Shown piece by piece: positions 20,034-61,760 of a DNA stretch of 64,000 nucleotides. The stretch's first letter is position 1; each line of letters opens with the position of its first letter. The translations under genes and the position numbers were made by a program. The stretch is taken from positions 1 through 64,000 of the IMG/VR virus record IMGVR_UViG_3300030117_004232. One strand, given 5' to 3'. A model generated the notes under the pieces. That model had not been told where the DNA came from. It did no database searches and saw only the letters and a program-made list of their open reading frames with translations. The DNA is from a virus.

Positions 20034-20245
20034 GTGACCGGCTTCGCCTACAACGAGAAGGAATGGAATATTTACTAATGACACACTACAAAATGGGGTT
20101 GGAAGAAGTGAGAAAATTAAGCGTCAAAGATGCCAAGCAATTGCTGCATTGGGCACAAGCAATGCAAGGTGAAGAAGAGGCTGCTCAAAACGCAGTGTAC
20201 TTGGGCTATGACTCTGTGCCACCACTGGAGGGGAGTTTGTGGTAG
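19970..20245 (+). CDS. Putative tail assembly chaperone extension (T-like; -1 frameshift product or own ATG at 20063)
   Basis: -1 frame relative to previous ORF, opening just before GTTTTTCGGG. Confidence 0.45.
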   Translation: MASFSGSEAGRIRHFVHGRPVSDRLRLQREGMEYLLMTHYKMGLEEVRKLSVKDAKQLLHWAQAMQGEEEAAQNAVYLGYDSVPPLEGSLW

Positions 20246-24986: not shown

Positions 24987-24987
24987 T

Positions 24988-30900: not shown

Positions 30901-33900
30901 TGGGCCCCTGAACAAGCGTTTGCTAGTCTTGATAGAGGAACACACATGGGGTATGTTCGTGCGCATCTCGGTCGTGTATCTATCGATTCATCAGACCCAG
31001 AAAACAAAGGGTTCAGTATTGTTATTCACAGTACTGTCCCCGGTGCATCCGGTCGAAACTTCTGTACTTGGCTTGATAACTCCAAGGCTCAGAGCCCATA
31101 TCGTCCAGAATACATGATTGGGCACGGCGGGCGCTTCCGTAATTACTGGTGCCAACCAGATGAGGTAACTGGGGAAAACATGCACCCAGCACCCATGCCA
31201 ATCAACAGGCATGGTCGCCCATTTGCTCCAATTACAACTCTCAAGGAGTTCTTGCCACCTGAAGAGTTGAATGACCAAATGATGAACAATTTAGACCTCG
31301 GGCCAGAAACACAGGCAACTGCATTGTTTGCATCTACCAACGAAGAGTCCAGCACAGGGCGTAATTACAATTCTGTTGCAAACGAATCCTTTGAGACAAA
31401 GAGTCCGGCTGGTACTCTGATTGACGGACTACGCGTTGGTACGAAGGCCAAGGCTCGCATCAACTTTGGCGGCATGACCATGGCCGGTATTCCCGGCTGG
31501 GCACCAGATGCTGGTAAGTGGGGCTTTGGTAGAGATGGAGAGAATCCAAGATTCGATGCAATTTATGGTGTAGGTGTCAATAATGCTACAATCAAGGCTA
31601 CTTCTTTGAATTTAGACAATAGTGCTGACAGATATATTCCATTAGATGATATGCAGAGTCAAAACATTGGGGATGGAAATTTATACGGTATTCGCTTTGT
31701 TGACCATCGTGGTGATTCCCACACCATCCGTATGGTGTATCGTCAGTATGGAGAAAGATTCGCTAATGATTTAACTACTCTACCGCCATCAATCGATGAT
31801 GAACTTATCATTCATTTCGATGACAGAGATGTAGCACAAGGTGGGTTCACCATTGGGCAACACATGGCTGGAACAGGTGAGGTTACGGGCAACATGACCA
31901 ATGGTACGGCCTCTTCTTGGAAAGGTAACTTGTGGAACAATTACCCAGCGCGTAATGTCGGGATTAGAGTTTCAACATCGATAACTGGAAGCGGTAGTGC
32001 AAGACAACTCACTCTAACACTGCAAGACCCGTATCAGAGTGGCGGAAATTTCAGCCATCCAGATGTGCTTGGTTATTTGGGCTTCCCAAAGAAAGACGGC
32101 ATGATTCAACTGTCAGATGATGGCGGGCATCTTGGTCTGACTTTCTCCTATAGTAGTCGGACAACTGGGGGTGTCGGTAGCACTGTTCGATTCTATGGCG
32201 TTGTAGGTGGGTTTGCTGGATATGACGAAACTGATGCTAACGAAGATTGGATTCTCAGTCCACGCATCAATTTCACAAGTGTACTGACCGATGAAGTGAT
32301 TGCTGCTGCTGTAGAGTATGCGATGAAGTTAGACAACGTCAACAGTGATGACTTGAATGTTACTAGTTTCGATTGCACCTCTATGTTTGCACCTGATGGT
32401 CGCACATTGAAAGAGTGGGGTGTAAGCCCAACTGCTATTCGTATCAGAACCAAGTCAGATGCATCTATTCCCCTTAACAAATTGTTTGAGGTTAGCAGAG
32501 AGAAAGACTGGGGCTTGGTTGAAGGTGCCAGTAGCGACACTGCTGTTGGTAGTCATCACACAGGCGGTCTGTCAAACTCTGAGCGCGATGCCGGAACTCG
32601 ACTGGATGTAGGTTACATCCCTGAAACTGTATTGCACATTACAACGAAGTATAGAGGGTCCAATGCTAATACTGCAACTCCTGTACTTGTAGACAATCAG
32701 AACAATGTGGTCGATACAGGACTTTGGCGAAGAAATCTTCGTGGTGAAAATTACACAGATGTCGCTGGGGACCACATTATTCCGCGAGTAGACAGCCCGA
32801 TGGTTAAGATTGACTCTGATACATCGACTACTCTCGTATTGGCAAGCAATGAGTATGTATTCTTAGCAGGTGCACCTTCGACGACGGCTGGTACAGGTCG
32901 ATGGGGTGAGCGATTTACACTTTGGTTCGGGTCTGAGGAGTATGGTACTGTCGCAGGTACAGATGAGGATACGCTCACCTTTGCAGCAAATGATGGTACT
33001 TCATCGGGCTTTACCAATGGAAACATTGACCAAAATGACATCTTGATTAAGAATGGCGGCCCTGTTCACAAAGCCAAGCAAATAGATGGTATTCGTAGAG
33101 CCGGTAGTAAACTGTCAAGTCCATTTCTTTACTTCCGTGGTGGAAGAGATAGTGCTGACCACTGGGTTCCATTGTTCTTCGGAGGTGGTTTCTCTGGTGT
33201 TGTTATGGACATCAATGATGGCACGGAAAATGATTACTCGGACTTCTATACCCATCCTTACGCTGCTGGACCCACTGGTGCATGTGGATTGCAAAATGCA
33301 GGCGAAATGTCAACCGCGTTTTCTCTACTAGACACGAATGCAATGCTGGCCATGTTCCCCGGAACACCATACCTTGACCAGCACAAAGGTCAGAATAATC
33401 CACCTTTCTTCAACCAAGATGCCATCTTACCGTTTGATATGACCAAGGGTGGTAATGCTAAGGTAACTGGGGTAGATTATACAGATGGGACCAACACTGT
33501 AACTGTAACTGTACCCAGCCCAATTGTCATCAAATTTGCTAGTGCAAATGCTAGATACTCCGCAGCACCAAGCGCAGAACATACAACTTACATGATTTTC
33601 GGCCCCGGCCAATCATTCCCTCACAACTACATGTCTCAAGAGCCACAAGGTTCTGCGATGGTGACCGCAGGCAACGGGTATAGTGCTGTACCTATTGCTC
33701 GCACAGCAGGTGGACTTGCGTTTTTACCAAATGAGTTGGCTAATGGTTCACCAACTCATGCAGGTTTCAATACAGGTGGTGCAGAAGCGCACCTACCTAT
33801 GAGTACTTTCTATCAGAAAAATAACGTGAGTGGCTTCAATTATGTCATGAATTGGGAACCAGCGAAAGGCTTTCCAAATCATCGTTCTTTGAGTGGTGCT

Positions 33901-36900
33901 AGTTCCGTAGGATATTCCAATGTGTTTAGTGACTCTCGATTCTTTACAGGCAAGGCGCCCGGTACGTCTAACTTACCAGTTCATGCACATCCGATGAATC
34001 AACCAATCAGTCTTTACAATTCAGGTACACCAAGAGAAGTCGGGACATCAAATTGGTCGACTACACGGTTTTCTTCAGTGATTTGGCACATGGATGGAGG
34101 CTATCACCCCGGTGGACATTTCTTTGATAATGCGGTGCGCAAAAATCCAATGAATGTTGTGGCAAACGCTGTTTTGTCTGGAAATACAACTAACCAGCAT
34201 AACCCTGCCGCATTTAGGGTAGCAGGACTGTTGGCAACGGCTTACAACGCGGCATTCACCTCACCTCACGAAGAACAACTGTGTGATGATAACATTGTTT
34301 TGGTCGATGCCACTAGAGTGCAGAATGCAGAAGAACTAGGTACAATCCTATCAGCAGCAATCAATACATTCCCCGGTTCTTATGGACTCAAAGCGATTGG
34401 TGGTACATTTATGCCATCGTTCCAAACCGGCACAAATCAAGACCGATATGGTTGGCACAAACTGATTATCGACCACAGTAGTGGATATGTTCCTCACAAC
34501 TCTACCACACCTGCATCTATTACAGTGAAAACTACGATTCCTTCGACTTTACCACAGTATGGTTGGATTCGGATGTCAAGTGGAACTAAGGCTGCCGTGG
34601 CTGCCTATTCGTCATATACGGGTAAGACATTCACTCTGGCTGTAAATTCAGTTATGTCTTCTTCTTCAGGTAATGAGACAAATGCCTACGAGCCAAATAC
34701 TGCCGCAGCAATTACAGATACTGATTTCAATGTGGAAGATGGAGAAGTGTATGTATGGACAAAGGCAGGTACACGAAGACACAACAACGTGTCTGGTACT
34801 ACTTCGCGCGACCACTTATGTCAAGTTCACTTCAATGGACTGATTGATGCTGTAGATAGAACAAAGCCCATAGGCGCAGTTGGTTGGCACGGCGAAGCAT
34901 ATTCTTACTTCAATTCTTACCTAGTTGATTCAGCCTATCCTGCCGGACTTGGTGCTTGGCATCCCTTCCTCGGATTCAGTCCTTATGGTGCTGCTGAAAC
35001 ATGCTTGGGTAGTTCAACACCAGTAGGGGTTGCAGACACTCCAACAGCACTTGCCTCAGAGTTTTGTGTAAATGGCCTATCTTCTCGACACTTGGTAGCG
35101 GTTAGTCGAGAATGTGCTTTGTCCTTGGTAGCATTTTCTGACAGAGATGGTATATTTATGCGAGGAGACAGATTATCAGCAAAATTGGGGTCTGACATTT
35201 CCTACGCCGGTACGGTAATGAATTTGAGTGGGTTTAGCAATTCAAGATTTGAAGCGCCCGCGACAGGTGGACCTCATATTGAAGCACATTTCCACACTGG
35301 ATTTGCTCGACCTACACTAGCAGCAGATTATCCTGCTACTAGTGCTGTTCCAACTGACGCACAACTTCACCGCGCCATGCAATCAGGTGATATGGTACAC
35401 GGAACCACTTGCCAATATCCAACAGGAGACTTGTTTTGGGATGAAAGCGTCGTCAAGTCAAACAACTTCCATGAAGATTTTTCAGATTACGGCGTCGAGT
35501 GTATGGGGGCCACAGCCCACACAGATTACTTGAATACCGCAGTGACTGCTGCTCAGCCTCACCCCGGTTTATACGGTTACTACTCAAAGCGCTCTGCTGC
35601 ACGTAATTTCCTACCAGAACATATTGTATGGAAGCGTATGGATGGTGGAAATCTAACGATGCCTGCTCTTAATGCTCGTGGTTTAGGACAAATGCCACTT
35701 TTCTACGCAAAGGATAGTGGGGCATGGAAGTTAAATGGAGAAAAAATTCTTGGCAACGTAAGGTTTTCATTTGAGACAACAAATGCTTCTATGTTCCCGA
35801 TTATACAAGCACAAGAACTAGCACATCCGCAGTTAGCAGAGCAGTACCCAAGAGAAATTCAACAGGCTTTACTAATTCCAAATGAACAAGAGCAATTCAA
35901 GAGTGTACAAGTCATTGATGATACAGGTCAAGAACATCGCCTTGAAGGTGGTTCTCCACTCGGTACAGTCATACTTGATTTCCGCCATGTTAGTGATAGA
36001 GAAATAGAAGGATTGGCGCCTGCTTTGGCTGGAAGCGGCGTATCTCCCAATATGAAGATTGGATTACCAAACCCAGATGAAATACCGGGCAATGTCATTG
36101 TCCGTTCTGGGTTTGACCGAATCCAAGGCTATCAGAATGAAACAATGGGGTCTGGTGGGCTTCAGCATCCTTCACAGCCAAACCAACAAATTATTGATTT
36201 GTTCAAAAACACGAATGCAGGCCCCCGGTTGTGGCCTTTTTGGGAAAATAACGGATGGGAACACATTAGTCAAGATAGTGTAGATGTTTCCCAACTCAAG
36301 AATATACACCGATTGGATTATCCAGCATCTACAAGTAACGGGTGGGAGGATTCCACTGGAAATGCACCTTTGCAAACTGCCTATGAGCCCCATGACCGAA
36401 GTTTGTATTTCCATGTAACAAGAATGGGCATATCCTCTACCCATCGATATTCTAATGACGAGTTGACTTTCAGTAGTTACAGTGGTACAACAATTACGGT
36501 GGGTTCAGCCCCGGAAGCCACGACTTGGAAAATCGAAAGTGAAAAAAGTGGTGGGCGATGGTTCCTACGAGTCTATGACCCTACGACCAACAAAGGTGTA
36601 ATTGCCAGTTACACAAATACGTCTAGTAGTACCTTTACTGGTGTGGTTTATTCTCCTGATTTTGCTGAGTTTGTCGAAGGTAAGACTGGTTTGAAAGTCG
36701 TGCCTTCTTATTACATGCCTGCTGGTACTACTCGATTCTTTGCATCTCGTCGTTTGCGAGACCACTGCGAGGTTAGCGGCGCCAGTCCAGATGCAGCGCA
36801 AATTGATTGGTTTGCTTTCCATAGTACTTTGCCTGCGGACACAGCCGCTACAGAAAATGTCAGTGACAATCCGTGGTATACTCACTTTACAGAGAGGGGA

Positions 36901-39900
36901 TTAACTCCTATGCCTATCCCGCGTATGGGCCATCATTACGTAACGCCTACAATGGCTATTTTGCCCGGTCACTACGCGCATCCTGCATACCAACGAGTGT
37001 ACGATTTGCACCATGCATGTAGAAGTTCCAATCACAAGCCTATGGTTGATGAATTATTGGGCCTAAAGGCTGCAACAAGGGCTGCCAATGAAACAAGCGG
37101 CGTGCTGGTCAATCATCCTAGTGCTGGGACTTACGCTGTGGGAACAACTGCTATTGCAGTGGATACAGTAGATGCTACGACTAAATTCTCAATTGGTGAC
37201 CGAGTCTATGACAGTGTAGGGACTGAACTAGGATTTGTAGAAGCAGTCGGGGCTAACCTCGTTACCTTGGCCTCTCCGGGTATACCTGTCACCATTGCCA
37301 ACAACGCTGCTCTGTTTATGAGTACGGCGACAACACTTACCCGAGGTATTGGATGGAATCCAGCAGCGTGGTTCTCAACACCTACAGCCACCTATGGTCC
37401 GTCAGATATTCATGGCGGTGCGTTTACTCTGATGACTGAAACCAAGGTCAAGTATGATGGATATGGAATCGCAGCGTCTGCGGGAACTCCCGGTAATACA
37501 AATGCAGCCGGTGGGCACAGTCTTGTTTTGGAAGCAGGCTCGACATATACCCTCAATCATCATTTCCCTGACCCATTGGAAGTGGGCGCGTATCAAATTA
37601 TCATTCAGCCCAATGTATTCGCACAGCAATTTAGTGGATTTCATGTAAATCATGCAACCGAAAATAAAGCCCCGTCTGAAAGTGGAACTAAAGTTACAGA
37701 ATTGACTGGTCAGCAAGTAAACACGGTGATTGCAGTTGAGCAAGATACAGCCACAAATGGTGCTTACACGCTGATTTTAGCAGAAGCGATGATGGCAGAT
37801 GTGCGTGGCTGTGAGGTCATTGTAAACGAAGTAATGTTGGATATTGACCCTGATGTCGGTAGTCAGTTTACGTGCTTACCGCCCATGGCTCTGTATAATC
37901 CTCTAGGTGTTCAAGAAACAGCATCTGCACCATTTACACGACGGAGTTTACCTTACCGACCGGGTATGTTCATTAGTTCTACGCCGGGTAGAACTTTGAC
38001 GATTCCTTGGTGGGGTATGCTGCACAAAGACGGATTGACAGAGGGGCTTATCCAAGGGGATGGACTGAGTGTGACCGCAGGTGGTAGTGGTTACACAGGT
38101 GCCACCAACGTAGCAGTGGGCGGAGGAAGTGGCACTGGTCTTACAGTCAATACCACTGTGAGCACAGGTGCAGTTACCGCAGTTGCTATCCATACGGCTG
38201 GAACAGGCTATCGACTTGGAGATACACTTACCATTAGCGGAGGTGGGAGTGATGCTACACTTAGTGTAGATAGAATCAGTTCAACGGGGTGGAGGCACCT
38301 AGAATGGCACAAGCCAGACAATTACTACGAATTCTGTCGAGCATCTTATGGGTGCGTCGGTGCACAATTGACCTTGGCTGGCTACCCCACCTCTTACATG
38401 GACATCTATGCCAAGTATCGGAACAACCGCTCAGCCAACCCAACTTGTGTTGTACTTTCATTGAGTTCTGGCGGCAAGACGATTACGGTGGACAACAATG
38501 ACTTATTCCCTTCCAGACCACACTATGGAGAGCAGTTAGAATACACCAAGAATGGTATTCGCTTTACTGCAACTTACAACAATCGCACAGGTACGCTTGA
38601 TTATGCTACACTGGGTGTATCGACTATTTTCCAAGGGGTTGAAGGAAGTGCTGATTTCTGGGCAAACTTGGCCGCTAATCAGGTACTCAAACTTACGCGC
38701 CCATACGATACACACCCCTCTGACAGTATCTATCTGGAATCCGATAGTAGCATTGTTACCAGACTTATGGAGAAGCCTTTAGAGATACACAAAGGGAGTC
38801 GTGATACGAACAGTTTGCATCTACCTGATGCATATTTGTGTATGTGGCATCCCAACCTTGGTCGCCCATTCACATGGTATAGTGATACTGCTACTGGTGG
38901 TAGTCGCAACTTCTACACAGCGGCTGGTGCAGCAGACACTCCGGTTGACCAAAAGCCATACAATCACATTCCTGAGCACTTTGAAACCATCCACTATCAC
39001 GATTTCAATTATGCAGCGTCGAAGGGGCCATTTGGATTGGCTATGCGATGGATTGTACCACCTGCTGCTGGCACAGCGCCAACCAACTCAAATGATGGCA
39101 TGACATATACTGCGGCTTTGATTGATGCGGATGCAAACCTTGAGCATCAAGGTGGCACGTCTGGTTCGGACAAGTACAACTTTGCTGGCTTTTGGCCTAG
39201 TGGTAGTCGTGGTGGGCCCGGTGTCAGTCGGCTGGAAATGTACGCAGAAGCCTTGGCAGGCTGGGGTGGCGAAAGTTATGGCATGACTGTTACGACTTAC
39301 ACAGATAGCACAGGCATTGCATCTGCATCAAAGCCAAACAACTTGAACGATGGATTCGGCTATCGGTTTGGTGTAGGCCAAGCCCGAAACCGACCGCGTT
39401 GGGCACCTTATATTCGCGGTTGGTTGGAAGTTGCAAATAGCAATGCTCTACTGGGTTACTATCACGGTCCACTTATCCAACAAGATAACAAGACAAACGG
39501 ATGGGATTATGTTGGTGCAGACGGATTGGCTGATGTGAGCCTAACCGCACTCTACGTGGGTATTTTGGAAAGAATCACACAAGTAAGTTCACTGATGAAT
39601 CAAGACCAGTATGGTCGAAAGGTGCGCTATAGTGATGGTAGGCGGCATACTGCCCCATTCGGCTGTCCTGTCCGCACATTGCGCAATGCCTCAACTGTAC
39701 GTCGGTTGTATCCGGGCGATGATACAGGAAAGGGTGTGACAGAACTCGCCAATGCACATCGTTACTACATTGTTGACTGGTGGGGCAATACCCGTGGTGA
39801 AGATGTCAGACGTTTCCCTGTACGTGGATTCGGTATTCGGCCATCTTGGGACCCCGAAGATGCTTATGCAGACACCAACGTCACTCATCGACCCAAGGAT

Positions 39901-41238
39901 GGTAGTGCGGCGGGCTCAGGGCTTCTGTTCAATGGTGATTATTCAGACAAGTATAGCGGTAACAACAATTACGTCAGTAACACCGCATCTGGTAATATCA
40001 ATGGTGGTGTTGATTGGTTTAACCCAGCCAGTTCACTGCGTGTGGGTGACCGTGGTGATGGACGTGGTTGCCGATGGCCGACTGTGTTTAACGAAAGTCT
40101 ACTTATGGCCGTCAGTGAAACCCACGATGCCTCTGGACTTGTGTTGTCTCACAGCACAGCAGAGCCTGCCTTTGGACAAGGACTCATCCGACCCAGTAAC
40201 TTGGTTTTGCAAGATGGAGAAGTTGAAAGAGGTATCAGTGACCGAGTCGATTTGAATTCCGATGATGGATTGCTGCGACCAAGTGCATCCGTAGGCGAAG
40301 GCTTTGAGACAGTGACTGCGGATACTCGTGGTGCTGAGCCGGTTTCCAGAGATGACTTCAGATTAGGATTAGATGTAGATACGTTGGCTGAACTGAATGA
40401 TGGGACTTCAAGAGAGTACGTGGTTATGTCCACAGAGGCTGCGAGTTTACACACAGACCGTGAAGTCGGTCAACGGACCAATATCAGAGGAGCATACAAT
40501 GTCGCATCTCGCACTCTTACCGATTTGGATATGACTGCGCTTACCTTTGCAGCACAGCCTGTGGCTGGAATCATAAAGCACTCTAATGCACACGCTATGT
40601 GGTCATTGGGCGGAACATACGTCATAGATTGGAGCGTATATTCTGGCGTACTCAACGACAAGGGTTGGGGTAAGGCCGGTGCTTCTTCGTCATCCAATCC
40701 ATATCAGGATTCAAACCACGACCCTACTGTTCAGGCTACGAACACAACTGATTCGACAATACAATTCTTGTATCGCCCACAACAAGTGTTAGATTACAAG
40801 CATTCGCAGATGTTTAGACCCTACATCACACTCAACGGTCCACAGGCTGGGGCCAATTTTTACAAGGCGACAGCAGGAGGGAAATACGGCTTGTTTACCA
40901 GTGATGTACCCAGTGCTCGTACAGGGACGCCCAGTTCGCCTCCATACGCGCCCGTGTACACCATGGTGCCAACCTCTAGTACCACCGTGCCCGATAGCAT
41001 GGGACCAAAGATTCAGGGTGTGGATGTTACGGGATACAACAAGGCCGACATCCGCAGCCCTGTAGCACGCATGCTAATGAGTGAGAACACACTAGAACAT
41101 TTCAGGTCTGACGCGAGCAGAACAGATGGTACTGGTGAAGGTGATTACACTGTTCAGCCAAGGCACAGTCAAACTTTGCACCCGAAGGGTAGCGATGGCG
41201 ATGCATCTTATAACACAGGAGACCATAGCGGGGAGTGA
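24988..41238 (+). CDS. Giant (~5400 aa) virion/tail protein with N-terminal LamG-like domain and repeated beta modules
   Basis: Uninterrupted 16.2-kb ORF; YALKFNG, FTLETWF, MYVNG, FRGTIEAV, GLWRFEE LamG-like motifs; repeated TV(E/D)xxxxFP modules; T/S/G-rich. Confidence 0.75.
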   Translation: MTIMIDPGYALKFNGITDGVLIPASQHTLHGTDTQDDKQLPSALSSFTLETWFIPDSGGSVFEYENIMRLTVGTPSSPAPAQFEINLKNIAAGTIESHVLTSAKPVYGIDGSFTHWDGTLFPHPALEEHNSFLATDAGSNDLTALNEGHRELLNVTVVFNRKYIVMYVNGDIVAAKEFDEDHEVVLTPSRMFLGGRGGEFRGTIEAVHLSRGSKDSGKADFAPIKSDDTIGLWRFEEPIEPISLITTTPSISASTGASSSINIGATAAQALIDELSGQSGLTAINFTTTSPWTDMGQYSVKVHTATSFATRTIPKVPYNILVNPLGYTSTTGKATNKAPERLRLMAIDASAGTITVESIHLDFASNSTDGRRGALQAHDAGRFVVITGDCIVDGGNGNEYQPQGSGTQFSHRQGQVVIDESRFENHGLMFSMTMANRDVPENKFSAYTTNPGSGFLMGHSGRHTLNHVKSHPFMGILPVPSDYIVDKKIDATADVISATFESQYSDIKDTVPPNSIVSAFSTHGPVNIKPTIHTSFVTRVCENGMSDISDSSRGLLAVGGPGFNPIPFALKALNSPDALNPTGSVAEHLIPSSESRIAILNVPSLSTYNYAPFVQIHYNAIDHTGAAFTTCAASRITGTSNATTVTVQSIKSFGKDGETFPANELYIGTTPASTAQKATNTVTLHHGTKQLRFSASTDSAFQSADVADAVVRRLIGGPSLMVTKTVPDVSTIVTGSTSILDLIHTDLGTNPLAVYAPGGIIEFDIPDNFPFNDGDLEGDSSEGVVAEEVLDFSLTPAAYLPLHSSDSPQTTPRLISTAKTELTGQNSVFNRIIVKQNFNPLGLSENGDLLTANTSTGRSRSTGVFINNGGGYSSSTTGAMTVDGNNATHHIKTGDILYKLDGTVVGTVTGVTSTSVTASAGTSSAVVDNEELFTSPPSPTRGNTNQSTAVHEIFDIIEHTSHNGKARLIVQPSDRTRFSQGSRLEDVAFGGNSATIEHLLSRGRVLSFGEDNYGNSTLRAHGLISDISAASVNVKGDAAPDSHIVKEIMPGAPVVAVTLGGPGQGAINTKETWQPSPTARLAWNTRRDCTTLITAYNTSTITVKALNNRADDLASWGTYCFPKIGRVYIGLKDDVTGRMRYASAEYASKNATTFTFDTGAAAGRGTGLFLDFDGNEEARFTDWYATIIAEADTSSTGLVGLMLSIDDKFSEESMCSDGTTINDRLFQTLDTVSHDYQLGSQYASTRALVEIPLFEEFFFENHDKGVFPGPDNSMKIHIDCTHTAHTWAPNPVGRRFEAVSPKDPEVFAAFSYTIGNQTHQPGTKVSQPYDVSNHRVHVEDSDIFPIASAAPIAVAGINGSARYRRAFLSSGEWCIYVAKDQSSTVSLELAGSAGDTWSMSKNFLRDLTVGALLTPAPGYQDMNYRSIADNPELISAGYEGRRSFYYDRSNAMTQGGNVDYGLRQYVSAVEFRAGPKTNPHLDRIQNKRARSKVVATTSGGGGVVATITVEDASLFPTDTPNALYGYRLAWRDTGGTIRYGTYTTRKPNANLMTVTSTETTHPAVGDEVYIESLYALSASTWPRTIDGFLSRAWAYPYAPGGLRDGDTVWMNMHYTNPHAMEGLFCKSRGTLDEGKVWTGFNGGMGALHATNPRDSIPLENFLIGNTCVETAQNFVQHVNKSVELHHTAMGVASPADKSPMVAYIDPYQSTDEFTRVLLYDVAHDREFIAFQDLWMQVQSSADATKIGAAPSHTGGVILNTDANSGSWLDVPAGFASQSPYLNSTTQSDFIETAYCHASTWNASNTSAGGVKGLGIHRPQIQTSSFGVYAPRTNPAVVDSASAATKHDEVVKDQREQSTFFDTPDGTRCIPAFLALKGIRATTLDLTNHKENHSSHGRGLNSHPHWTQMDFTRRLTIDFGEVSLRDGVTDIESAAREVVRMINQAGAKNGRTHARLHSDFSATASTHDPAPFWAPEQAFASLDRGTHMGYVRAHLGRVSIDSSDPENKGFSIVIHSTVPGASGRNFCTWLDNSKAQSPYRPEYMIGHGGRFRNYWCQPDEVTGENMHPAPMPINRHGRPFAPITTLKEFLPPEELNDQMMNNLDLGPETQATALFASTNEESSTGRNYNSVANESFETKSPAGTLIDGLRVGTKAKARINFGGMTMAGIPGWAPDAGKWGFGRDGENPRFDAIYGVGVNNATIKATSLNLDNSADRYIPLDDMQSQNIGDGNLYGIRFVDHRGDSHTIRMVYRQYGERFANDLTTLPPSIDDELIIHFDDRDVAQGGFTIGQHMAGTGEVTGNMTNGTASSWKGNLWNNYPARNVGIRVSTSITGSGSARQLTLTLQDPYQSGGNFSHPDVLGYLGFPKKDGMIQLSDDGGHLGLTFSYSSRTTGGVGSTVRFYGVVGGFAGYDETDANEDWILSPRINFTSVLTDEVIAAAVEYAMKLDNVNSDDLNVTSFDCTSMFAPDGRTLKEWGVSPTAIRIRTKSDASIPLNKLFEVSREKDWGLVEGASSDTAVGSHHTGGLSNSERDAGTRLDVGYIPETVLHITTKYRGSNANTATPVLVDNQNNVVDTGLWRRNLRGENYTDVAGDHIIPRVDSPMVKIDSDTSTTLVLASNEYVFLAGAPSTTAGTGRWGERFTLWFGSEEYGTVAGTDEDTLTFAANDGTSSGFTNGNIDQNDILIKNGGPVHKAKQIDGIRRAGSKLSSPFLYFRGGRDSADHWVPLFFGGGFSGVVMDINDGTENDYSDFYTHPYAAGPTGACGLQNAGEMSTAFSLLDTNAMLAMFPGTPYLDQHKGQNNPPFFNQDAILPFDMTKGGNAKVTGVDYTDGTNTVTVTVPSPIVIKFASANARYSAAPSAEHTTYMIFGPGQSFPHNYMSQEPQGSAMVTAGNGYSAVPIARTAGGLAFLPNELANGSPTHAGFNTGGAEAHLPMSTFYQKNNVSGFNYVMNWEPAKGFPNHRSLSGASSVGYSNVFSDSRFFTGKAPGTSNLPVHAHPMNQPISLYNSGTPREVGTSNWSTTRFSSVIWHMDGGYHPGGHFFDNAVRKNPMNVVANAVLSGNTTNQHNPAAFRVAGLLATAYNAAFTSPHEEQLCDDNIVLVDATRVQNAEELGTILSAAINTFPGSYGLKAIGGTFMPSFQTGTNQDRYGWHKLIIDHSSGYVPHNSTTPASITVKTTIPSTLPQYGWIRMSSGTKAAVAAYSSYTGKTFTLAVNSVMSSSSGNETNAYEPNTAAAITDTDFNVEDGEVYVWTKAGTRRHNNVSGTTSRDHLCQVHFNGLIDAVDRTKPIGAVGWHGEAYSYFNSYLVDSAYPAGLGAWHPFLGFSPYGAAETCLGSSTPVGVADTPTALASEFCVNGLSSRHLVAVSRECALSLVAFSDRDGIFMRGDRLSAKLGSDISYAGTVMNLSGFSNSRFEAPATGGPHIEAHFHTGFARPTLAADYPATSAVPTDAQLHRAMQSGDMVHGTTCQYPTGDLFWDESVVKSNNFHEDFSDYGVECMGATAHTDYLNTAVTAAQPHPGLYGYYSKRSAARNFLPEHIVWKRMDGGNLTMPALNARGLGQMPLFYAKDSGAWKLNGEKILGNVRFSFETTNASMFPIIQAQELAHPQLAEQYPREIQQALLIPNEQEQFKSVQVIDDTGQEHRLEGGSPLGTVILDFRHVSDREIEGLAPALAGSGVSPNMKIGLPNPDEIPGNVIVRSGFDRIQGYQNETMGSGGLQHPSQPNQQIIDLFKNTNAGPRLWPFWENNGWEHISQDSVDVSQLKNIHRLDYPASTSNGWEDSTGNAPLQTAYEPHDRSLYFHVTRMGISSTHRYSNDELTFSSYSGTTITVGSAPEATTWKIESEKSGGRWFLRVYDPTTNKGVIASYTNTSSSTFTGVVYSPDFAEFVEGKTGLKVVPSYYMPAGTTRFFASRRLRDHCEVSGASPDAAQIDWFAFHSTLPADTAATENVSDNPWYTHFTERGLTPMPIPRMGHHYVTPTMAILPGHYAHPAYQRVYDLHHACRSSNHKPMVDELLGLKAATRAANETSGVLVNHPSAGTYAVGTTAIAVDTVDATTKFSIGDRVYDSVGTELGFVEAVGANLVTLASPGIPVTIANNAALFMSTATTLTRGIGWNPAAWFSTPTATYGPSDIHGGAFTLMTETKVKYDGYGIAASAGTPGNTNAAGGHSLVLEAGSTYTLNHHFPDPLEVGAYQIIIQPNVFAQQFSGFHVNHATENKAPSESGTKVTELTGQQVNTVIAVEQDTATNGAYTLILAEAMMADVRGCEVIVNEVMLDIDPDVGSQFTCLPPMALYNPLGVQETASAPFTRRSLPYRPGMFISSTPGRTLTIPWWGMLHKDGLTEGLIQGDGLSVTAGGSGYTGATNVAVGGGSGTGLTVNTTVSTGAVTAVAIHTAGTGYRLGDTLTISGGGSDATLSVDRISSTGWRHLEWHKPDNYYEFCRASYGCVGAQLTLAGYPTSYMDIYAKYRNNRSANPTCVVLSLSSGGKTITVDNNDLFPSRPHYGEQLEYTKNGIRFTATYNNRTGTLDYATLGVSTIFQGVEGSADFWANLAANQVLKLTRPYDTHPSDSIYLESDSSIVTRLMEKPLEIHKGSRDTNSLHLPDAYLCMWHPNLGRPFTWYSDTATGGSRNFYTAAGAADTPVDQKPYNHIPEHFETIHYHDFNYAASKGPFGLAMRWIVPPAAGTAPTNSNDGMTYTAALIDADANLEHQGGTSGSDKYNFAGFWPSGSRGGPGVSRLEMYAEALAGWGGESYGMTVTTYTDSTGIASASKPNNLNDGFGYRFGVGQARNRPRWAPYIRGWLEVANSNALLGYYHGPLIQQDNKTNGWDYVGADGLADVSLTALYVGILERITQVSSLMNQDQYGRKVRYSDGRRHTAPFGCPVRTLRNASTVRRLYPGDDTGKGVTELANAHRYYIVDWWGNTRGEDVRRFPVRGFGIRPSWDPEDAYADTNVTHRPKDGSAAGSGLLFNGDYSDKYSGNNNYVSNTASGNINGGVDWFNPASSLRVGDRGDGRGCRWPTVFNESLLMAVSETHDASGLVLSHSTAEPAFGQGLIRPSNLVLQDGEVERGISDRVDLNSDDGLLRPSASVGEGFETVTADTRGAEPVSRDDFRLGLDVDTLAELNDGTSREYVVMSTEAASLHTDREVGQRTNIRGAYNVASRTLTDLDMTALTFAAQPVAGIIKHSNAHAMWSLGGTYVIDWSVYSGVLNDKGWGKAGASSSSNPYQDSNHDPTVQATNTTDSTIQFLYRPQQVLDYKHSQMFRPYITLNGPQAGANFYKATAGGKYGLFTSDVPSARTGTPSSPPYAPVYTMVPTSSTTVPDSMGPKIQGVDVTGYNKADIRSPVARMLMSENTLEHFRSDASRTDGTGEGDYTVQPRHSQTLHPKGSDGDASYNTGDHSGE

Positions 41239-44880: not shown

Positions 44881-45128
44881 TGGGACGACTCGTCAAGCAG
44901 TTCAAGTGTACTTGCGAGAACTGTCAGAAGGCATCTATTCCCCTGTCAATTTCGGGGCGGTATGTATCTGGCGAGCCAGTGGTTTTGCACCAATGCCCTC
45001 ATTGTAGTTACGTGAGGCCGCATGGGGGACTGGGCCCTGTCGGCCTACGCAAGCGTAAGAAATCGCCTGTCAGTAGGCGGGCAAATGGTCGACTTTCCTT
45101 GTTTCTCAGGGAAATGGCTAAGAAATGA
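44880..45128 (+). CDS. Zn-ribbon protein with basic C-terminus
   Basis: CENC...CPHC; RKRKK; TGATG coupling; GGTGA RBS. Confidence 0.55.
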   Translation: MGRLVKQFKCTCENCQKASIPLSISGRYVSGEPVVLHQCPHCSYVRPHGGLGPVGLRKRKKSPVSRRANGRLSLFLREMAKK

Positions 45129-52633: not shown

Positions 52634-55027
52634 TCACCCATACCTCTTCGGTCGTGCTGCACCTGCTGCGAAATCTAGATTCCAATTCAGTGCGTTGAAT
52701 ATACTCTTAACCTTGGACTTGACCAACTTGTCCACCATCGTGTCATAGTCAAGTGTGTAACCCGCCAAGTCTGCCTCCTCACGATATGCGACGATGTCTG
52801 TCTTTGGCAAGCCATCCGGTACGCCACTGACATACACCCAGTTTACGCTATTTCCCTCACCCATGCGCTCGGACTTACCTTTCGCAATGTGTTCGTTGTA
52901 GTAACGTGCGCCCTTAACGCCCGGTACGCCCGCACTAGGGGCATACTGATTGAGTTTCTTTTGGATGCGGGTGGTGCCTGTGATTTCTGATATATCGACA
53001 TCGCCTCTAGCAATTCGCTTGGATAGTGGGCGCACCATATCAATGACCTCATCCTCATCTGCACCTGTGCAAACGGCTGTCAGTACATCGTTCTCCAAAT
53101 TCTTGGAGATGGGAGCGAGCGTGCTGATTTTACCAAACCGAGCAGACTTGACTTTGCCCTCATCTTCGGGTGGCCAAGAGCAGATGCCATAGTACAGGTT
53201 CTTCCCTGCAACCAACCAGTAGGGCATGTATGCCTCAAACTCTACGATGAGTGCGTGCTCTTGGTAGCGTCGTTGAATCTCTTCAGTCAGATGCTTAGCG
53301 AGTGCAGGTGCCTCGTCGAATGGCACTTTGACAAAGGCAGAGTCCGTGTGCCCGTATAGGGCCTCGTAGCCCTGTGCCTGCGACTCTTCCATGAGGAACT
53401 TGATAGCGCGACGACCGCAGGCTGTGATTGCACTGGCGATGTCAAAGTCTGACCAACCCCAGTGTGCAGATGCAGTCATCCCGTAGAAAGAGGCCATGAC
53501 ACGCTTCACTGCAAGTTGCATGGTGTTCCATCCCTTTCTCTCAGTTTCTGTCGCAGACTCTTTCATTTTCTTCTTGTACATATCACGGAGGTCAAACATC
53601 TCAGTCACAATACGTGGAAGCAGGCCCGGTTCACCCTGTTGCCAACAAGTACCATCAGGTAACTCATGTACATCATCGTCGTTGGCTCTACCTTTGGGCA
53701 CGCGTGTCTCCCATGAGAAGTTGTGACTAAGGATAAGGCTCGGGTACAGACCCTTGTAATCTAAACACGCTACGCCTTCATAGCGCCCCGGTGTGGGTGG
53801 TGGAATGTATGCACCTTCGTACTCTTGCTTCTCTTGTTGAGAGCGAGTCGGTGCTTTCCAATGTGTGCGCCTCGACAGGAGGCCCCGCGCAAACCGAGTC
53901 ACGTTGTGACAAGATGTGAACGAAACGCCTGTGATTCGTTGGAGTGATAAGTAAAAGTTCAGAACGTGATTTTCCTCATCTATTTTTTTGAGGAGGAGGA
54001 CATCCTGCATACAGTATGCGACGTAATCATCGAAGCGGTCATACCATCCCGTATGTACGTCCATCTCAAACTTTCCACCATAGCCAAGAGTCTCAGCAAT
54101 GGTGTTCAATTTGAGGTTCTTGAGTTGGGGTTGGCCACTGTCTTTCCATACCCGCTCAAAGCCAGTCCCACTTCTCAGCGGGGCCGCTGTGTCGAAGCAA
54201 AGTCGACCGCAAATCGGCTGTGCTGTGTAGTCATATCCTCGGTTCCCTTGAGGTGGTCTGAGCACTCTTCCGAGTGGACTTAGTCTCCTAAACTCAGGGA
54301 AACGCCTGACAATGTGGGGAAGGTCGGCCCACATTATCGCATGTGCAACGAAGATGTCAGGGTTGCATTCTTCCAGATATTCAAAGAATGCTTGGTACAT
54401 AGATTCCTCATCCATGTACAGATGTTGTTCGTATGTGAAGTGGTGGCGAATCCCATCTTCGTCAGTGTTATCGACTTCGACATTTTCTATAGAAACCAAA
54501 CCATTCTCATCTACTTCTCCCAAATCTTTGGCTCGATAATTGGATGATTCTGACCAACAGAAAACTACATTCCTTTCGTTGTAACTATCTGTGACGGCCA
54601 TGACGGTCGTGAAATCCTTCTTTGGGTCCCACTCAAGGTCAAAGTGCCAAACGCGGGGCTTCCACTCAGGCATTTCATCTATAGAATCAATGAGGTATCT
54701 GTCTGTCAAACTGAGGTCACCCTCCCACGTTTGGCCGAATTCCTTGGTCATCTCCCTGATGTCCGTCGTTCTATAGGCGTAGACCTTGACCAACTCTTCA
54801 TTTGTCCGCAACGCCTGAGCACGGTCATACCAGTCGATAGACGAGCCCGGATACCGAGCAAGCGCACGGTCTATAATTCTCTGAGGGGTGCTGGCCTTAA
54901 TCCAGAAGTAAGGTTGGAAGTCTTCGACCACCTCTTCGATGAGGTTTCCATCAGCGTCACGCCACCGTTTGTAGATGTGGTCGGGACCTTCTGGGTCTGG
55001 TCTGAAGACATCGATAATCATGTTCAA
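52634..55027 (-). CDS. polB: Family B DNA polymerase with proofreading domain
   Basis: ExoI FDLE, ExoIII YCMQD; motif A DYKGLYPS, B KRVMASFYG, C YGHTDS; KNLYYG. Confidence 0.95.
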   Translation of the reverse strand: MNMIIDVFRPDPEGPDHIYKRWRDADGNLIEEVVEDFQPYFWIKASTPQRIIDRALARYPGSSIDWYDRAQALRTNEELVKVYAYRTTDIREMTKEFGQTWEGDLSLTDRYLIDSIDEMPEWKPRVWHFDLEWDPKKDFTTVMAVTDSYNERNVVFCWSESSNYRAKDLGEVDENGLVSIENVEVDNTDEDGIRHHFTYEQHLYMDEESMYQAFFEYLEECNPDIFVAHAIMWADLPHIVRRFPEFRRLSPLGRVLRPPQGNRGYDYTAQPICGRLCFDTAAPLRSGTGFERVWKDSGQPQLKNLKLNTIAETLGYGGKFEMDVHTGWYDRFDDYVAYCMQDVLLLKKIDEENHVLNFYLSLQRITGVSFTSCHNVTRFARGLLSRRTHWKAPTRSQQEKQEYEGAYIPPPTPGRYEGVACLDYKGLYPSLILSHNFSWETRVPKGRANDDDVHELPDGTCWQQGEPGLLPRIVTEMFDLRDMYKKKMKESATETERKGWNTMQLAVKRVMASFYGMTASAHWGWSDFDIASAITACGRRAIKFLMEESQAQGYEALYGHTDSAFVKVPFDEAPALAKHLTEEIQRRYQEHALIVEFEAYMPYWLVAGKNLYYGICSWPPEDEGKVKSARFGKISTLAPISKNLENDVLTAVCTGADEDEVIDMVRPLSKRIARGDVDISEITGTTRIQKKLNQYAPSAGVPGVKGARYYNEHIAKGKSERMGEGNSVNWVYVSGVPDGLPKTDIVAYREEADLAGYTLDYDTMVDKLVKSKVKSIFNALNWNLDFAAGAARPKRYG

Positions 55028-55785
55028 TCCTCCTCATACTCTTGGTCGATGACCACCATTAGGAAGTCAGTACTTACTTGCTTGAGCACTATCACGCACT
55101 CGTCACTTGTGTGAATGTCGAGTTCCCCACTGGGGAGATTCTCCAATAGTTCAGGCAACCAATAGTCGAATGCTGAGCGTGCAGAAATGTCAGGCGATTC
55201 GATGTCAATGAGCGGGGCTCGTACAAACATCTTGCCCTTGTTGGATGAGCCACCACGAATCACCAACTCTGCACCTTGGGGGTCGAACTCAGTCTTGCAT
55301 GAGAACTTACTACCCACGACCTTGCTAAACTTACTTGCAGGTTTCAGCGATTCGGCTGTAACTTTCGCATGGTATTTGAGTGGGAATCCTGCCCACTTCT
55401 GCCACATGCTTTCCTCAGCCTCACGGATTAGGCGACTCATCAATCCAACCTTGTCCTGTGATTGAATGTAGGATGATGTCGGTAACTGTAGGCTTGACGA
55501 TGGACCTACGATATGCAGGGTGCTCGCCTTGCCTGATTGAGTAATCTTGAGGTCGCCACTCTTCATGGTGCCCATGAACGCTTTGACCTTGGCCAAGTCA
55601 CTGATGTTCACCTTGCCCGGTTGGCTGACATCACACTCCACCTTTCTGCGGATGAAGTGTGTGTCCTTACCAACTGAGGCGTGGATGCCATCGCTCTTGG
55701 CTTCGATGACCAAGTCTGCTAGGTCCTTACCGAAACTGCTCAAGAAGTCCTTGAGGCCACTGTGTGAGATTGTAAATTCTGTCAT
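55024..55785 (-). CDS. Putative sliding clamp (PCNA-like)
   Basis: 253 aa, directly upstream of polB, two-domain alternating beta/alpha pattern; RFC encoded nearby; sequence is divergent. Confidence 0.55.
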   Translation of the reverse strand: MTEFTISHSGLKDFLSSFGKDLADLVIEAKSDGIHASVGKDTHFIRRKVECDVSQPGKVNISDLAKVKAFMGTMKSGDLKITQSGKASTLHIVGPSSSLQLPTSSYIQSQDKVGLMSRLIREAEESMWQKWAGFPLKYHAKVTAESLKPASKFSKVVGSKFSCKTEFDPQGAELVIRGGSSNKGKMFVRAPLIDIESPDISARSAFDYWLPELLENLPSGELDIHTSDECVIVLKQVSTDFLMVVIDQEYEED

Positions 55786-55806
55786 AGTATCATATCCTGT
55801 AAAGGG

Positions 55807-55943
55807 TTGGGGGGAAGAGGTGGGCGGAGTTGAAGCGCCCAGTGCCGTTGCACTCCTGCTGGTATCCTCTTATTACTGCACAAACCCCCAAGCGTCGGCT
55901 AACTGTGGATATATTGCGATGGTCCACCCTGCCGTGCCGACGC
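55807..55943 (-). ncRNA. Structured intergenic RNA candidate with tRNA-like domain
   Basis: Nested stems UUGGGGG/CCCCCAA, AAGAGG/CCUCUU, GUGC/GCAC, UGGGCG/CGCCCA (loop contains UUCAACU) plus hairpin GCGUCGGC/GCCGACGC with inner GUGGA/UCCAC; strand inferred from context and T-loop. Confidence 0.55.
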
Positions 55944-55951
55944 AGATGTAA

Positions 55952-56938
55952 TCATAGCATGTTGTCCCTCATCTCAGCGAGTCCGTACCATGTGGCCTCC
56001 TCGCCCTTCTTCGTCACGAAGTACACTCGCTCCTGACCCTTGAGGTTGGAGTTGGTCTTCTGCTTGAAGAAATCAACATAGTGTCGCACTTCCCCTGTGG
56101 TTGAACCATCAGAGTTGCGCATCACCTGTGTCTTACACCATAGGATTTGGAACAGGTCGTTGGTCGCACTCTTCTCCCATGCGAACTTCCAACCATCGAA
56201 TCCAATCTTGCCCTCTCGGTCCTCTTTGAGATGTGTCTCCCAAAAGACATCGACTCCAAGGCTGTTGAGTTGACGGCAGATTGCAGTCAGTTGTCGGAAT
56301 CGTGTGGAACGAATGCCCCAGTTCCAACCAATCTCTTGATTGAGTTTGGATTGAGATGCTTCGATAGCATCCTTCGCATTCATATCCAAGTCGTAGATTT
56401 TCATGATGTCCATGCACATGCCGTCGAACTGGTCAACCGCCGTGACAAGGAATGTCTTGAGCAGAGGGCCTTCAAAGCCTTCTTCGTACTGCTTACTCGC
56501 ATACTCTACGGCTGCCTTACCGATGTCCATGACACGCTGATAGGTTGCGATGTAATCGTAGGCCGTGCGGTCCTCCATCTGCATTACCCATGGTGAGAAG
56601 GTACGGAAGCGTGCATCGTCCCGATAGTGCGCCTGCTTGCAAGCCATTGCACCATTGTCGAAATCGAGTGCCCAGAGCATCTCTCCCTCCTTGAATCGGT
56701 GGGCGTGGGCATCCAGTACTAGACCGGACTTACCCACACCCTCATGCCCTACCATACCACAGAAGACGTGTGATACCTTGGATGGTTCACCGAGTCCTTC
56801 CATCTCTTTGATGATGTCAGGAAAACTGCTGACAAATGCCTCTGAGGTTACAGGTGCCTGTGCTGCGATGGGTGCGTCTTCAGGGACTACTTCCTTCTCC
56901 GCTTCGCTGGTCTGCGCTAGTGCTCCCCATCCACTCAT
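55952..56938 (-). CDS. RecA-superfamily ATPase (Sak4/AAA_24-like recombination protein)
   Basis: Walker A GHEGVGKS, LDFDNG, VFWETH. Confidence 0.7.
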   Translation of the reverse strand: MSGWGALAQTSEAEKEVVPEDAPIAAQAPVTSEAFVSSFPDIIKEMEGLGEPSKVSHVFCGMVGHEGVGKSGLVLDAHAHRFKEGEMLWALDFDNGAMACKQAHYRDDARFRTFSPWVMQMEDRTAYDYIATYQRVMDIGKAAVEYASKQYEEGFEGPLLKTFLVTAVDQFDGMCMDIMKIYDLDMNAKDAIEASQSKLNQEIGWNWGIRSTRFRQLTAICRQLNSLGVDVFWETHLKEDREGKIGFDGWKFAWEKSATNDLFQILWCKTQVMRNSDGSTTGEVRHYVDFFKQKTNSNLKGQERVYFVTKKGEEATWYGLAEMRDNML

Positions 56939-61314: not shown

Positions 61315-61760
61315 TCTTCCTCTCCTTTCTTCCGACGGCGGTAATTTCTGTGGTATTCAATCATCTTCTCTCGATTCTTCTTGTAGTATTCACGATGGTA
61401 TTTACGAACCTTCTCTGGATTCTCCTTGTAGCGTTCCCTTGCTCGTTTACGCCGACGTTCCTTCACTTCAGGTCGCTTTTCATATTCACGCTTACGTTCC
61501 TTCACTTCAGGGCGTTGGTAGTATTCACGATTGCGTACAAGTATATTTTCTCGATTCTTCTTGTTGTATTTACGCTGGCTGATTTTATTACGTTCCTTCA
61601 CTTCAGGGCGTTGGTTATACTCCTTTAGTCGCTTAGCCTTACAAGTGTCGCAGAATCTTTTCTGCGGGATGTATTTGAAAAAGGTATCACAGGTTTCGCA
61701 TAGAGTTATTTGTTTTCTGAAAATCAAATCCATGAGGTCATCATCATCATAAGTTGTCAT
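61311..61760 (-). CDS. Zn-finger plus basic repeat protein (RPEVKER repeats)
   Basis: CETC...CDTC then three RPEVKER repeats; very K/R/E-rich. Confidence 0.6.
   Translation of the reverse strand: MTTYDDDDLMDLIFRKQITLCETCDTFFKYIPQKRFCDTCKAKRLKEYNQRPEVKERNKISQRKYNKKNRENILVRNREYYQRPEVKERKREYEKRPEVKERRRKRARERYKENPEKVRKYHREYYKKNREKMIEYHRNYRRRKKGEEE
61455..61607. repeat. Three 18-bp coding direct repeats
   Basis: acgttccttcacttcagg at 61455, 61494 and 61590. Confidence 0.85.

Follow-up and report, generated by a model that had tools for sequence, protein, structure and literature searches.

The window analysed here is a stretch of 64,000 nt that forms the start of the 73,968 bp IMG/VR record IMGVR_UViG_3300030117_004232. 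It encodes a PolB with its best matches in haloarchaeal tailed viruses, a clamp loader, a Cpn60_TCP1 thermosome-type chaperonin (4e-128), an ERCC4 nuclease, a portal protein and an HK97-like capsid protein. The nearest cellular relatives of the chaperonin are in Poseidoniales/Thalassarchaeaceae (40% identity); cultured phages share no DNA similarity with the window, and GTDB genomes contain no relatives of its clamp. Magroviruses, which are viruses of marine group II archaea, are defined by a tailed-virus head module, an archaeal-type replication set and a viral chaperonin (Philosof 2017, PMC5434244), and by its match to this gene set the window virus is a magrovirus. The genes at the locus of interest are as follows:

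52634..55027, minus strand: PolB gene (Pfam DNA_pol_B, 4.8e-35), the start of which is overlapped by the end of the clamp gene
55024..55785, minus strand: gene for a 253 aa PCNA-type sliding clamp, identified by its predicted fold, with its ATG at 55783-55785
55952..56938, minus strand: upstream gene for a 328 aa P-loop (Walker A/B) ATPase, whose stop codon lies 8 nt ahead of the 5′ hairpin listed below

The 253 aa clamp has neither a Pfam match nor a meaningful PDB sequence match, and its AlphaFold2 model (pLDDT 76) has archaeal PCNAs as the top Foldseek matches (E ~1e-9, TM 0.62), so that by its modelled structure the protein is a putative PCNA-fold clamp. In the 328 aa ATPase the Walker motifs (G..G.GK.G and D) are invariant in alignment A5; a PDB sequence search found nothing meaningful and its profile gave chance-level matches (E 0.5-0.8). 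Homologues of this ATPase in other viruses are encoded either upstream or downstream of the RNA motif described below, and in locus L354 a 269 aa protein in the same operon position matches AAA_24, the link between the two being one of position.

A gap of 166 nt (55786-55951) lies between the ATPase and clamp genes, on the minus strand as are all of its neighbours. The sequence-only reading had called it the largest non-coding gap of the window; it is indeed large, but is not clearly the largest, as the intervals 44881-45128 (248 nt between convergent genes) and ~20034-20238 are equal or larger unless the small ORFs present in both are real. The same reading described the gap as an anticodon-less tRNA-like RNA composed of a series of stems, and RNAfold of 55786-55951 on the minus strand recovers every one of these. 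The minimum free energy (MFE) structure contains a 5′ hairpin (GCGUCGGC/GCCGACGC, with an inner GUGGA/UCCAC pairing), UUGGGGG/CCCCCAA, AAGAGG/CCUCUU, GUGC-AACG-GCAC and GGGCG-9 nt-CGCCC. The minus strand, to which the element had been assigned, is the gene strand, and the element stands directly before the RBS of the clamp-PolB genes. Its parts, in the order in which they occur in the RNA, are as follows:

55892..55943, minus strand: 5′ hairpin in the MFE structure, with outer pairing of 55936-55943 to 55892-55899 and inner pairing of 55923-55927 to 55905-55909
55885..55891, minus strand: P2 5′ strand, UUGGGGG, pairing with 55807-55813; the GGGGG core is present family-wide
55871..55884, minus strand: J2/3, with an invariant UU, the pseudoknot 5′ strand GUGC (55878-55881) and loop L1, AGUAAUA (55871-55877)
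55866..55871, minus strand: P3 5′ strand, AAGAGG, pairing with 55815-55820 (previously the 'acceptor-like stem')
55854..55865, minus strand: variable linker AUACCAGCAGGA, unconserved (previously the 'D-like loop')
55842..55853, minus strand: local hairpin GUGC-AACG-GCAC, the 3′ half of which (GCAC, 55842-55845) is the predicted pseudoknot 3′ strand
55822..55840, minus strand: P5 hairpin GGGCG-CUUCAACUC-CGCCC, with a conserved and covarying stem and a variable loop (previously the 'T-arm')
55815..55820, minus strand: P3 3′ strand, CCUCUU, from the MFE structure, the match to covariance model R1 and alignment A3
55807..55813, minus strand: P2 3′ strand, CCCCCAA, from the MFE structure, the R1 match and alignment A3
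55783..55806, minus strand: tail with an SD-like AGGA (55795-55798) and the PCNA ATG (55783-55785), from the sequence; the R1 match reaches the ATG

Folding energy does not distinguish this gap from chance, the z-score being -1.0 over the full 166 nt, -0.9 on the complementary strand and -0.3 when the core alone is folded. Because these single-sequence scores are non-significant, folding energy is not counted as support, and judged on the lone sequence the observation would be unconvincing. A search for repeats within the window reveals no second copy of the element. Among public sequencing runs, none of RNA is listed as containing the stretch. A 98% identical strain, represented by contigs from four DNA studies, has four differences within the gap (55849, 55914, 55916 and 55917), all of which are in loops, the last three in the loop of the 5′ hairpin.

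Clamp homologues of 44-98% identity were gathered, 11 and then 51 viral and 80 metagenome loci, yielding 74 distinct gaps upstream of the clamp, about 65 of which are 74-207 nt long and have a clear common architecture. There are fundamentally three forms. In type A the order is P1, GGGG, UUU, a short strand (e.g. AUCC), AGUAAUAA, P3, an A-rich linker, GGAGAUAGU and P5, the loop of which is variable and often U-rich; following P5 are GAA, P3′, UU, CCCC, often R-C-C, then P1′, AGGUGAU and the ATG. Type B keeps the common shell; its J2/3 carries a small hairpin, and its interior is a different, three-way one. Type C, composed of the window and its relatives L012, L064, L065 and L066, also has the common shell, together with another interior and an extra 5′ hairpin. 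The family consensus for the 5′ part is GGGG-UUU-nUCC-aG-UAAUAA, and within loop L1 the UAA is invariant across the family.

The window copy has the P2 GGGG/CCCC pairing, the UU, a UAAUAA-type loop, P3, the return strands in order and a start codon directly after; its alignment to R1 shows GGGGGUUUGUGCAGUAAUAAGAGG ... CCUCUUCCCCCC. The type A interior (GGAGAUAGU before P5 and GAA after it) is absent from the window, which is therefore a divergent member and not a canonical one. On these comparisons the window core (55807-55891, minus strand) is best described as a divergent 'type C' copy of a ~100 nt pseudoknotted magrovirus RNA motif. The 5′ hairpin (55892-55943), between the ATPase stop codon and the conserved motif, does not belong to the motif as shared by the family; the window, L012, L064, L065 and L066 keep it, differing by one G-C to A-U replacement and by G.U changes, and types A and B lack it. 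The linker at 55854-55865 has a 16 nt insertion in L012 and is of other sequence in L065 and L066. The loop of GUGC-AACG-GCAC is GAUG in L064 and differs at 55849 in the 98% strain, with the stems untouched, and the P5 loop of 9 nt in the window is different in L064 and 22 nt long in L012.

Several lines of comparison bear on whether this architecture is real. For the covariance model R1 we used 35 type A sequences and helices P2, P3 and P5 only, leaving out the window and all of types B and C. Its sole real match in the 64 kb window is at 55783-55899 on the minus strand (39.8 bits, E 6.5e-8, model positions 1-118 of 118), and it matches 69 of 76 related loci, each time directly ahead of the clamp ATG. 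There is not a single R1 match in 712 kb of unrelated viral loci, and a loose DNA pattern scan, which doubled as a negative control for R1, produced chance matches only. In the alignment of 69 sequences (A3), which is fitted to R1 and hence biased toward it, 94.3% of the cells of P2, P3 and P5 are paired, compared with 47-58% when the partners are slid within the identical alignment. Double changes occur at 14 of the 15 pairs, and the covariation score is 0.46 against 0.06-0.11, a value reached by none of 500 shuffles.

The individual helices conform to this pattern. Double changes are present at all five P2 pairs on A3 and at three of the five on A4, with GGGG/CCCC and GAGG/CCUC as variants in relatives; pairing in the P3 columns is 95-99% on both alignments, with compensatory changes of many types; and among unique sequences on A4, P5 opens with a G.U pair in 36 and with G-C in 20. 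The outer helix P1 was evaluated free of any alignment, and the flanks pair with their own partners at -4.56 kcal/mol as opposed to -2.71 kcal/mol when permuted (0 of 1000 permutations), though members of the window clade have a weak P1 or none.

A further interaction is a predicted pseudoknot, in which a strand 4-8 nt after P2 pairs with a strand just 5′ of P5, crossing P3; its 3′ strand lies 0-4 nt 5′ of P5 in all types. In the window the predicted partners are GUGC (55878-55881) and GCAC (55842-55845), the latter 1 nt before P5. The variants include TCC/GGA, TCA(G)/(C)TGA, TGCCA/TGGCA, TGTCA/TGACA, GCTC/GAGC and GTCC/GGAC, as well as CCC/GGG in close relatives of TCC/GGA copies, and in type B the pairings are GGUA/UACU as compared with GGCA/UGCU. 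Within the window clade the two partners change together (GUGC/GCAC in the window, UGUGCA/UGCACA in L065 and UUGCG/CGCAA in L066). Alignment A4 was built from a model without the pseudoknot and is thus not fitted to its pairs, and in it the three core pairs are ~93%, 98% and 88% paired, with double changes in each. The local hairpin GUGC-AACG-GCAC and the pseudoknot are mutually exclusive, as both use GCAC. What had been described as an anticodon-like arm is therefore a local hairpin with the pseudoknot strand as its 3′ half; its loop is not conserved among near relatives, and the label applies to shape only. Across some 70 relatives, then, P2, P3, the P5 stem and the pseudoknot covary, and this comparison shows the gap element to be a real conserved structured RNA.

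The element also appears to have gone undescribed, as the sequence-only reading had suggested. Searches of Rfam 15 with the window gap at E up to 10 give chance-level matches only (E 4.6-9.5, 14.6-17.3 bits), and with 17 relatives at E up to 1 there is nothing at the element; it is a member of a viral RNA family absent from Rfam 15. The magrovirus papers searched make no mention of RNA motifs. More than 10,000 candidate structured RNAs have been catalogued from IMG/VR (Fremin & Kyrpides 2023, PMC10690425), and these share with our motif their source and their kind, as they include candidate cis-regulators that precede replication genes of phages, GP32 for instance. The text of that article names no clamp, PolB or archaeal-virus motif, and the more than 10,000 candidates are unnamed.

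Searching whole virus records with R1 shows that many genomes contain two or three copies of the motif, and two exact-pattern scans yielded extra copies. They are found in the following contexts:

ahead of PCNA-PolB, as in the window
ahead of an ATPase homologue, PCNA and PolB (L171/L211)
ahead of ORFs of 70 aa and 77 aa, an AAA_24 ATPase, PCNA and PolB (L354, L336)
ahead of a UvrD-like SF1 helicase, often as two complete back-to-back copies (L168, L342, L346)
ahead of a Cys-containing small protein of 66-104 aa
ahead of small ORFs followed by an N6/N4 DNA methylase and a SNF2 helicase

In L175 the second tandem copy is decayed, and in one relative the operon behind the motif includes an IMPDH/GMP-reductase-like gene. 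The motif is about 15-45 nt from the start codon of the next gene and in the same orientation throughout, although its position shifts within one conserved operon in different viruses, and some copies are near record ends. The small proteins encoded behind other copies have no homologue within the window. Because the downstream genes are varied, we conclude that the motif marks the heads of DNA-metabolism units. Under strict filters it was not found in 151 sampled host-order genomes or in three marine group II MAGs, and the lack of matches in the 151 host-order genomes points to a virus-specific system. A match in a 'Parvibaculum' MAG comes from a MAG that also contains a contig resembling mis-binned magrovirus DNA.

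Of the four options offered by the sequence-only reading, a cis-regulator fits best by virtue of the position before the clamp-PolB RBS. Since it heads several DNA-metabolism units in related viruses, we read the motif as a cis-acting leader that would serve as operator for a viral replication regulon; we estimate the chances of this as about even, a protein effector being likelier than a small ligand. A trans factor would bind the folded leader RNA and thereby set the translation and/or the stability of the PCNA-PolB message. A protein operator is slightly favored because the motif looks virus-specific, and because types B and C retain the shell but have exchanged the interior. As the interiors differ among types A, B and C, such a binder would have to recognize mainly the shell (P2, UU, UAAUAA, P3 and the pseudoknot). 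Competition between GUGC-AACG-GCAC and the pseudoknot for the GCAC strand could make the fold switchable. Outside of the window clade, clamp-context copies have the upstream stop codon immediately next to P1, and ribosomes ending the ATPase gene would be expected to melt P1 and P2; the extra 5′ hairpin of the window clade may insulate the motif from terminating ribosomes. It is a point against the operator reading that conserved junctions and tandem copies would fit a riboswitch too.

Three more specific possibilities were considered and set aside. A CRCC/GGUG hairpin that masks the SD occurs in some 35 of the 86 copies, with a weak version in the window, but SD sequestration is not a general mechanism, as the probability of the SD being paired (0.69 versus 0.67 when shuffled) is not above that expected from composition. 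A bulge-helix-bulge site, sought by eye, has its larger bulges on the wrong sides of P2. An archaeal promoter in the U/A-rich J2/3 is discounted, since covariation extends to the 5′ strands of P1, P2, P3 and the pseudoknot, which must accordingly belong to the RNA.

The operator reading has precedents in phage T4, in which the gene 32 leader pseudoknot, the gene 43 operator hairpin and the RegA regulon are bound by phage proteins that repress downstream translation. As in T4, a structured RNA or pseudoknot directly precedes the RBS of replication genes of a tailed dsDNA virus, clamp and polymerase among them, and is shared between genes in a regulon-like manner. In contrast to T4, there is no homology of sequence or structure, the magrovirus fold is much larger and more conserved, and the host is archaeal; the position and multi-gene spread fit a T4-type operator. 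The fold, its conservation, strand and position and its spread over several genes are demonstrated, and a regulatory role, a binder and a mode of action are inferred. T4 translational operators of replication genes are among the subjects reviewed by Uzan & Miller (2010, PMC3014915).

The alternatives differ in which features of the motif they explain. A riboswitch, in which a pseudoknotted aptamer for a ligand or ion linked to DNA synthesis (e.g. nucleotide-related) sets translation of the replication genes, is a serious rival, as the motif has invariant junction nucleotides and occurs in tandem copies. Like aptamers with H-type pseudoknots, the motif is a multi-helix pseudoknot with covarying helices, near-invariant junction and loop nucleotides (UU, UAA, AU and GAA) and a 5′-leader position ahead of functionally related genes; tandem full copies, as seen before the helicase gene, are an arrangement familiar from some riboswitch classes, and the IMPDH/GMP-reductase-like gene of one relative is also in keeping with it. 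Virus-borne riboswitch classes usually occur in cells too, however, whereas this motif was not found in the 151 host-order genomes and is virus-only in the genomes searched. Moreover, types B and C, the window included, have a wholly different interior where the pocket would lie, there is no clear or consistent expression platform, and no riboswitch class in Rfam 15 is matched, such that we regard a riboswitch as unlikely. A self-cleaving ribozyme that cuts polycistronic transcripts would share with HDV-like ribozymes a nested double pseudoknot with two hairpins in loops, the strand order read from the alignments being pseudoknot 5′, P3 5′, hairpin, pseudoknot 3′, P5 and P3 3′, and the conservation of junction nucleotides, Y-GAA ahead of the last strand among them, and the several and tandem copies per genome would accord with such a role. 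Nonetheless it is highly improbable. HDV-like ribozymes have a P1 of 6-7 bp starting from a G.U pair at the cleavage site and an invariant catalytic C in J4/2, but the equivalent of P1 here is too short, at 3-5 bp without a starting G.U pair, the position of the catalytic C is more often U than C (36 versus 20 unique sequences), types B and C have another core interior, and no Rfam ribozyme family is matched at E up to 10 (window) or up to 1 (17 relatives).

The remaining alternatives include those closest to the original description of the element. As an anticodon-less tRNA-like RNA, in the style of the tmRNA TLD or Y RNAs, the window copy on its own can be drawn with an acceptor-like stem, a GG loop and a hairpin loop containing UUCAACU. 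ARAGORN, however, reports no tRNA or tmRNA in the 64 kb window and none at the element in 14 related loci (two of which have ordinary tRNA-Leu and tRNA-Arg genes elsewhere, in agreement with group B magroviruses; PMC5434244), and Rfam tRNA and tmRNA families are negative at the element. The T-like and D-like loops are not conserved even in relatives of 95-98% identity: the former has 9 nt and not 7 nt and is replaced in L012 (98% clamp identity), in L064 (95%) and in type A, which in its canonical form has no T-loop, and the latter is variable, as the L012 insertion illustrates. The tRNA-like reading is thus largely refuted and most improbable. Comparators for this reading include the tmRNA TLD, viral TLS, RNase P minihelix substrates and the precursor of the phage P1/P7 C4 RNA. 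A processing or stability element, either an endonuclease site (an RNase P/Z-like minihelix or other) or a 5′-protective fold, could separate or stabilize the PCNA-PolB message, and draws on the G/C-rich terminal helix, on the possible stacking of P2 and P3 to ~10-11 bp, on the R-C-C that follows P2 in many clamp-context copies and resembles a discriminator base plus CC, on the location of the motif at cistron boundaries, and on a tRNA-Leu gene about 90 nt upstream in L166. We consider it quite unlikely, as the R-C-C is missing in the contexts of L171, L155, L163 and L337 and is AACC in the window, and there is no T-loop, the P5 loop being variable. Finally, a stand-alone gene for a trans-acting small RNA, or a DNA element (an origin or ssDNA structure), might merely lie beside the replication genes, which it adjoins, with several copies per genome and some near record ends. 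Against this, the orientation is always with a start codon 15-45 nt further on, and clamp-context copies have no room for their own promoter and terminator between the stop codon and the SD. The abundant G.U pairs of the gene strand would be A.C on the other strand, and together with the pseudoknot they favor an RNA in the mRNA sense, which makes the DNA origin that had been offered as an option unlikely and this alternative as a whole very unlikely.

Magroviruses rank with the most abundant viruses in the surface ocean, and both the viruses and their hosts are uncultured. To our knowledge almost nothing has been learned of how magrovirus gene expression is controlled, and a recurrent covarying fold before clamp-polymerase, helicase and other DNA-metabolism operons provides a synthesizable handle on it. 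The window copy alone looks like a tRNA, which is misleading without the relatives. It is rather unlikely that the motif is a new riboswitch-class aptamer or a new self-cleaving ribozyme, restricted to archaeal viruses and governing a replication regulon; if it were, viruses of archaea would gain their first reported RNA device of this kind. Structured regulatory leaders are rare in archaea, and if the motif is a virus-specific regulon element, it would widen the known extent of RNA-based regulation in archaea.

The conserved pseudoknotted RNA motif lies on the minus strand between the ATPase and clamp genes, in a gap (window 55786-55951) that the sequence-only reading took to be the largest non-coding one in the window. 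That ranking stands only if small ORFs in two other intergenic stretches are real; otherwise both are as long or longer. These stretches, and two further features of the window, are:

window about 20034-20238, intergenic stretch
window 44881-45128, intergenic stretch between convergent genes, adjoining the chaperonin gene
window 24979-41238, one uninterrupted open frame, 5,419 aa long, within the virion module
window 61338-61622, imperfect direct repeats of two interleaved families in a gene-dense minus-strand region (47-nt and 35-nt units, three copies of each)

The window's chaperonin is 76% identical to one on a contig (L365, NZQM01000180.1) of a MAG labelled Parvibaculum, and a different contig of the same MAG holds a motif match (G038:C157:25377-25502, 37.6 bits). 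Both contigs probably derive from a magrovirus and were mis-binned into this bacterial MAG.

The interval between the motif and the clamp start varies among relatives. In L064, a locus with 95% clamp identity, it contains a small ORF (L064:1233-1503) predicted to be zinc-ribbon-like from its two Cys pairs (CPECG ... CFDCE). The final 9 nt ahead of the start in this locus, GATACTATG, are duplicated and flank the small ORF on either side, a pattern that suggests the gene was inserted into the leader recently. Three other relatives (L015, L068 and L073) have an A/T-rich insertion with an internal palindrome (GAAAACUUUCUGAAAAGUUC...) at this position, and the distance from motif to Shine-Dalgarno sequence is about 65 nt. 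In one virus, a gene of the IMP dehydrogenase/GMP reductase family (L210:3209-4267, G024; PF00478, 1e-99) separates PolB from the PCNA-like gene downstream of a motif copy.

Motif copies are also found in back-to-back pairs, at four loci before a UvrD-like helicase gene; in the first three listed, both copies are complete:

L168:9164-9373, back-to-back pair
L346:3553-3740, back-to-back pair
L342:2120-2310, back-to-back pair
L175:1150-1409, pair with the second copy decayed, its interior gone and only a short GAGAU-UUA-AUCUC stem remaining

Two motif-bearing loci contain tRNA genes, which together match the pair described in group B magroviruses (PMC5434244):

L166:1771-1855, tRNA-Leu(taa)
L168:4009-4083, tRNA-Arg(tct)

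A hairpin occupies part of the roughly 90 nt that separate the tRNA-Leu gene from a motif copy downstream of it. In L165, L166, L168 and L174, a conserved box, GGAGGUUUAAA(A)GGUAAAAAU, followed by a variable hairpin, is positioned about 55 nt upstream of motif copies that precede a 66-aa gene. This box could be an archaeal BRE/TATA promoter, in which case the leader would start about 30 nt before the motif.
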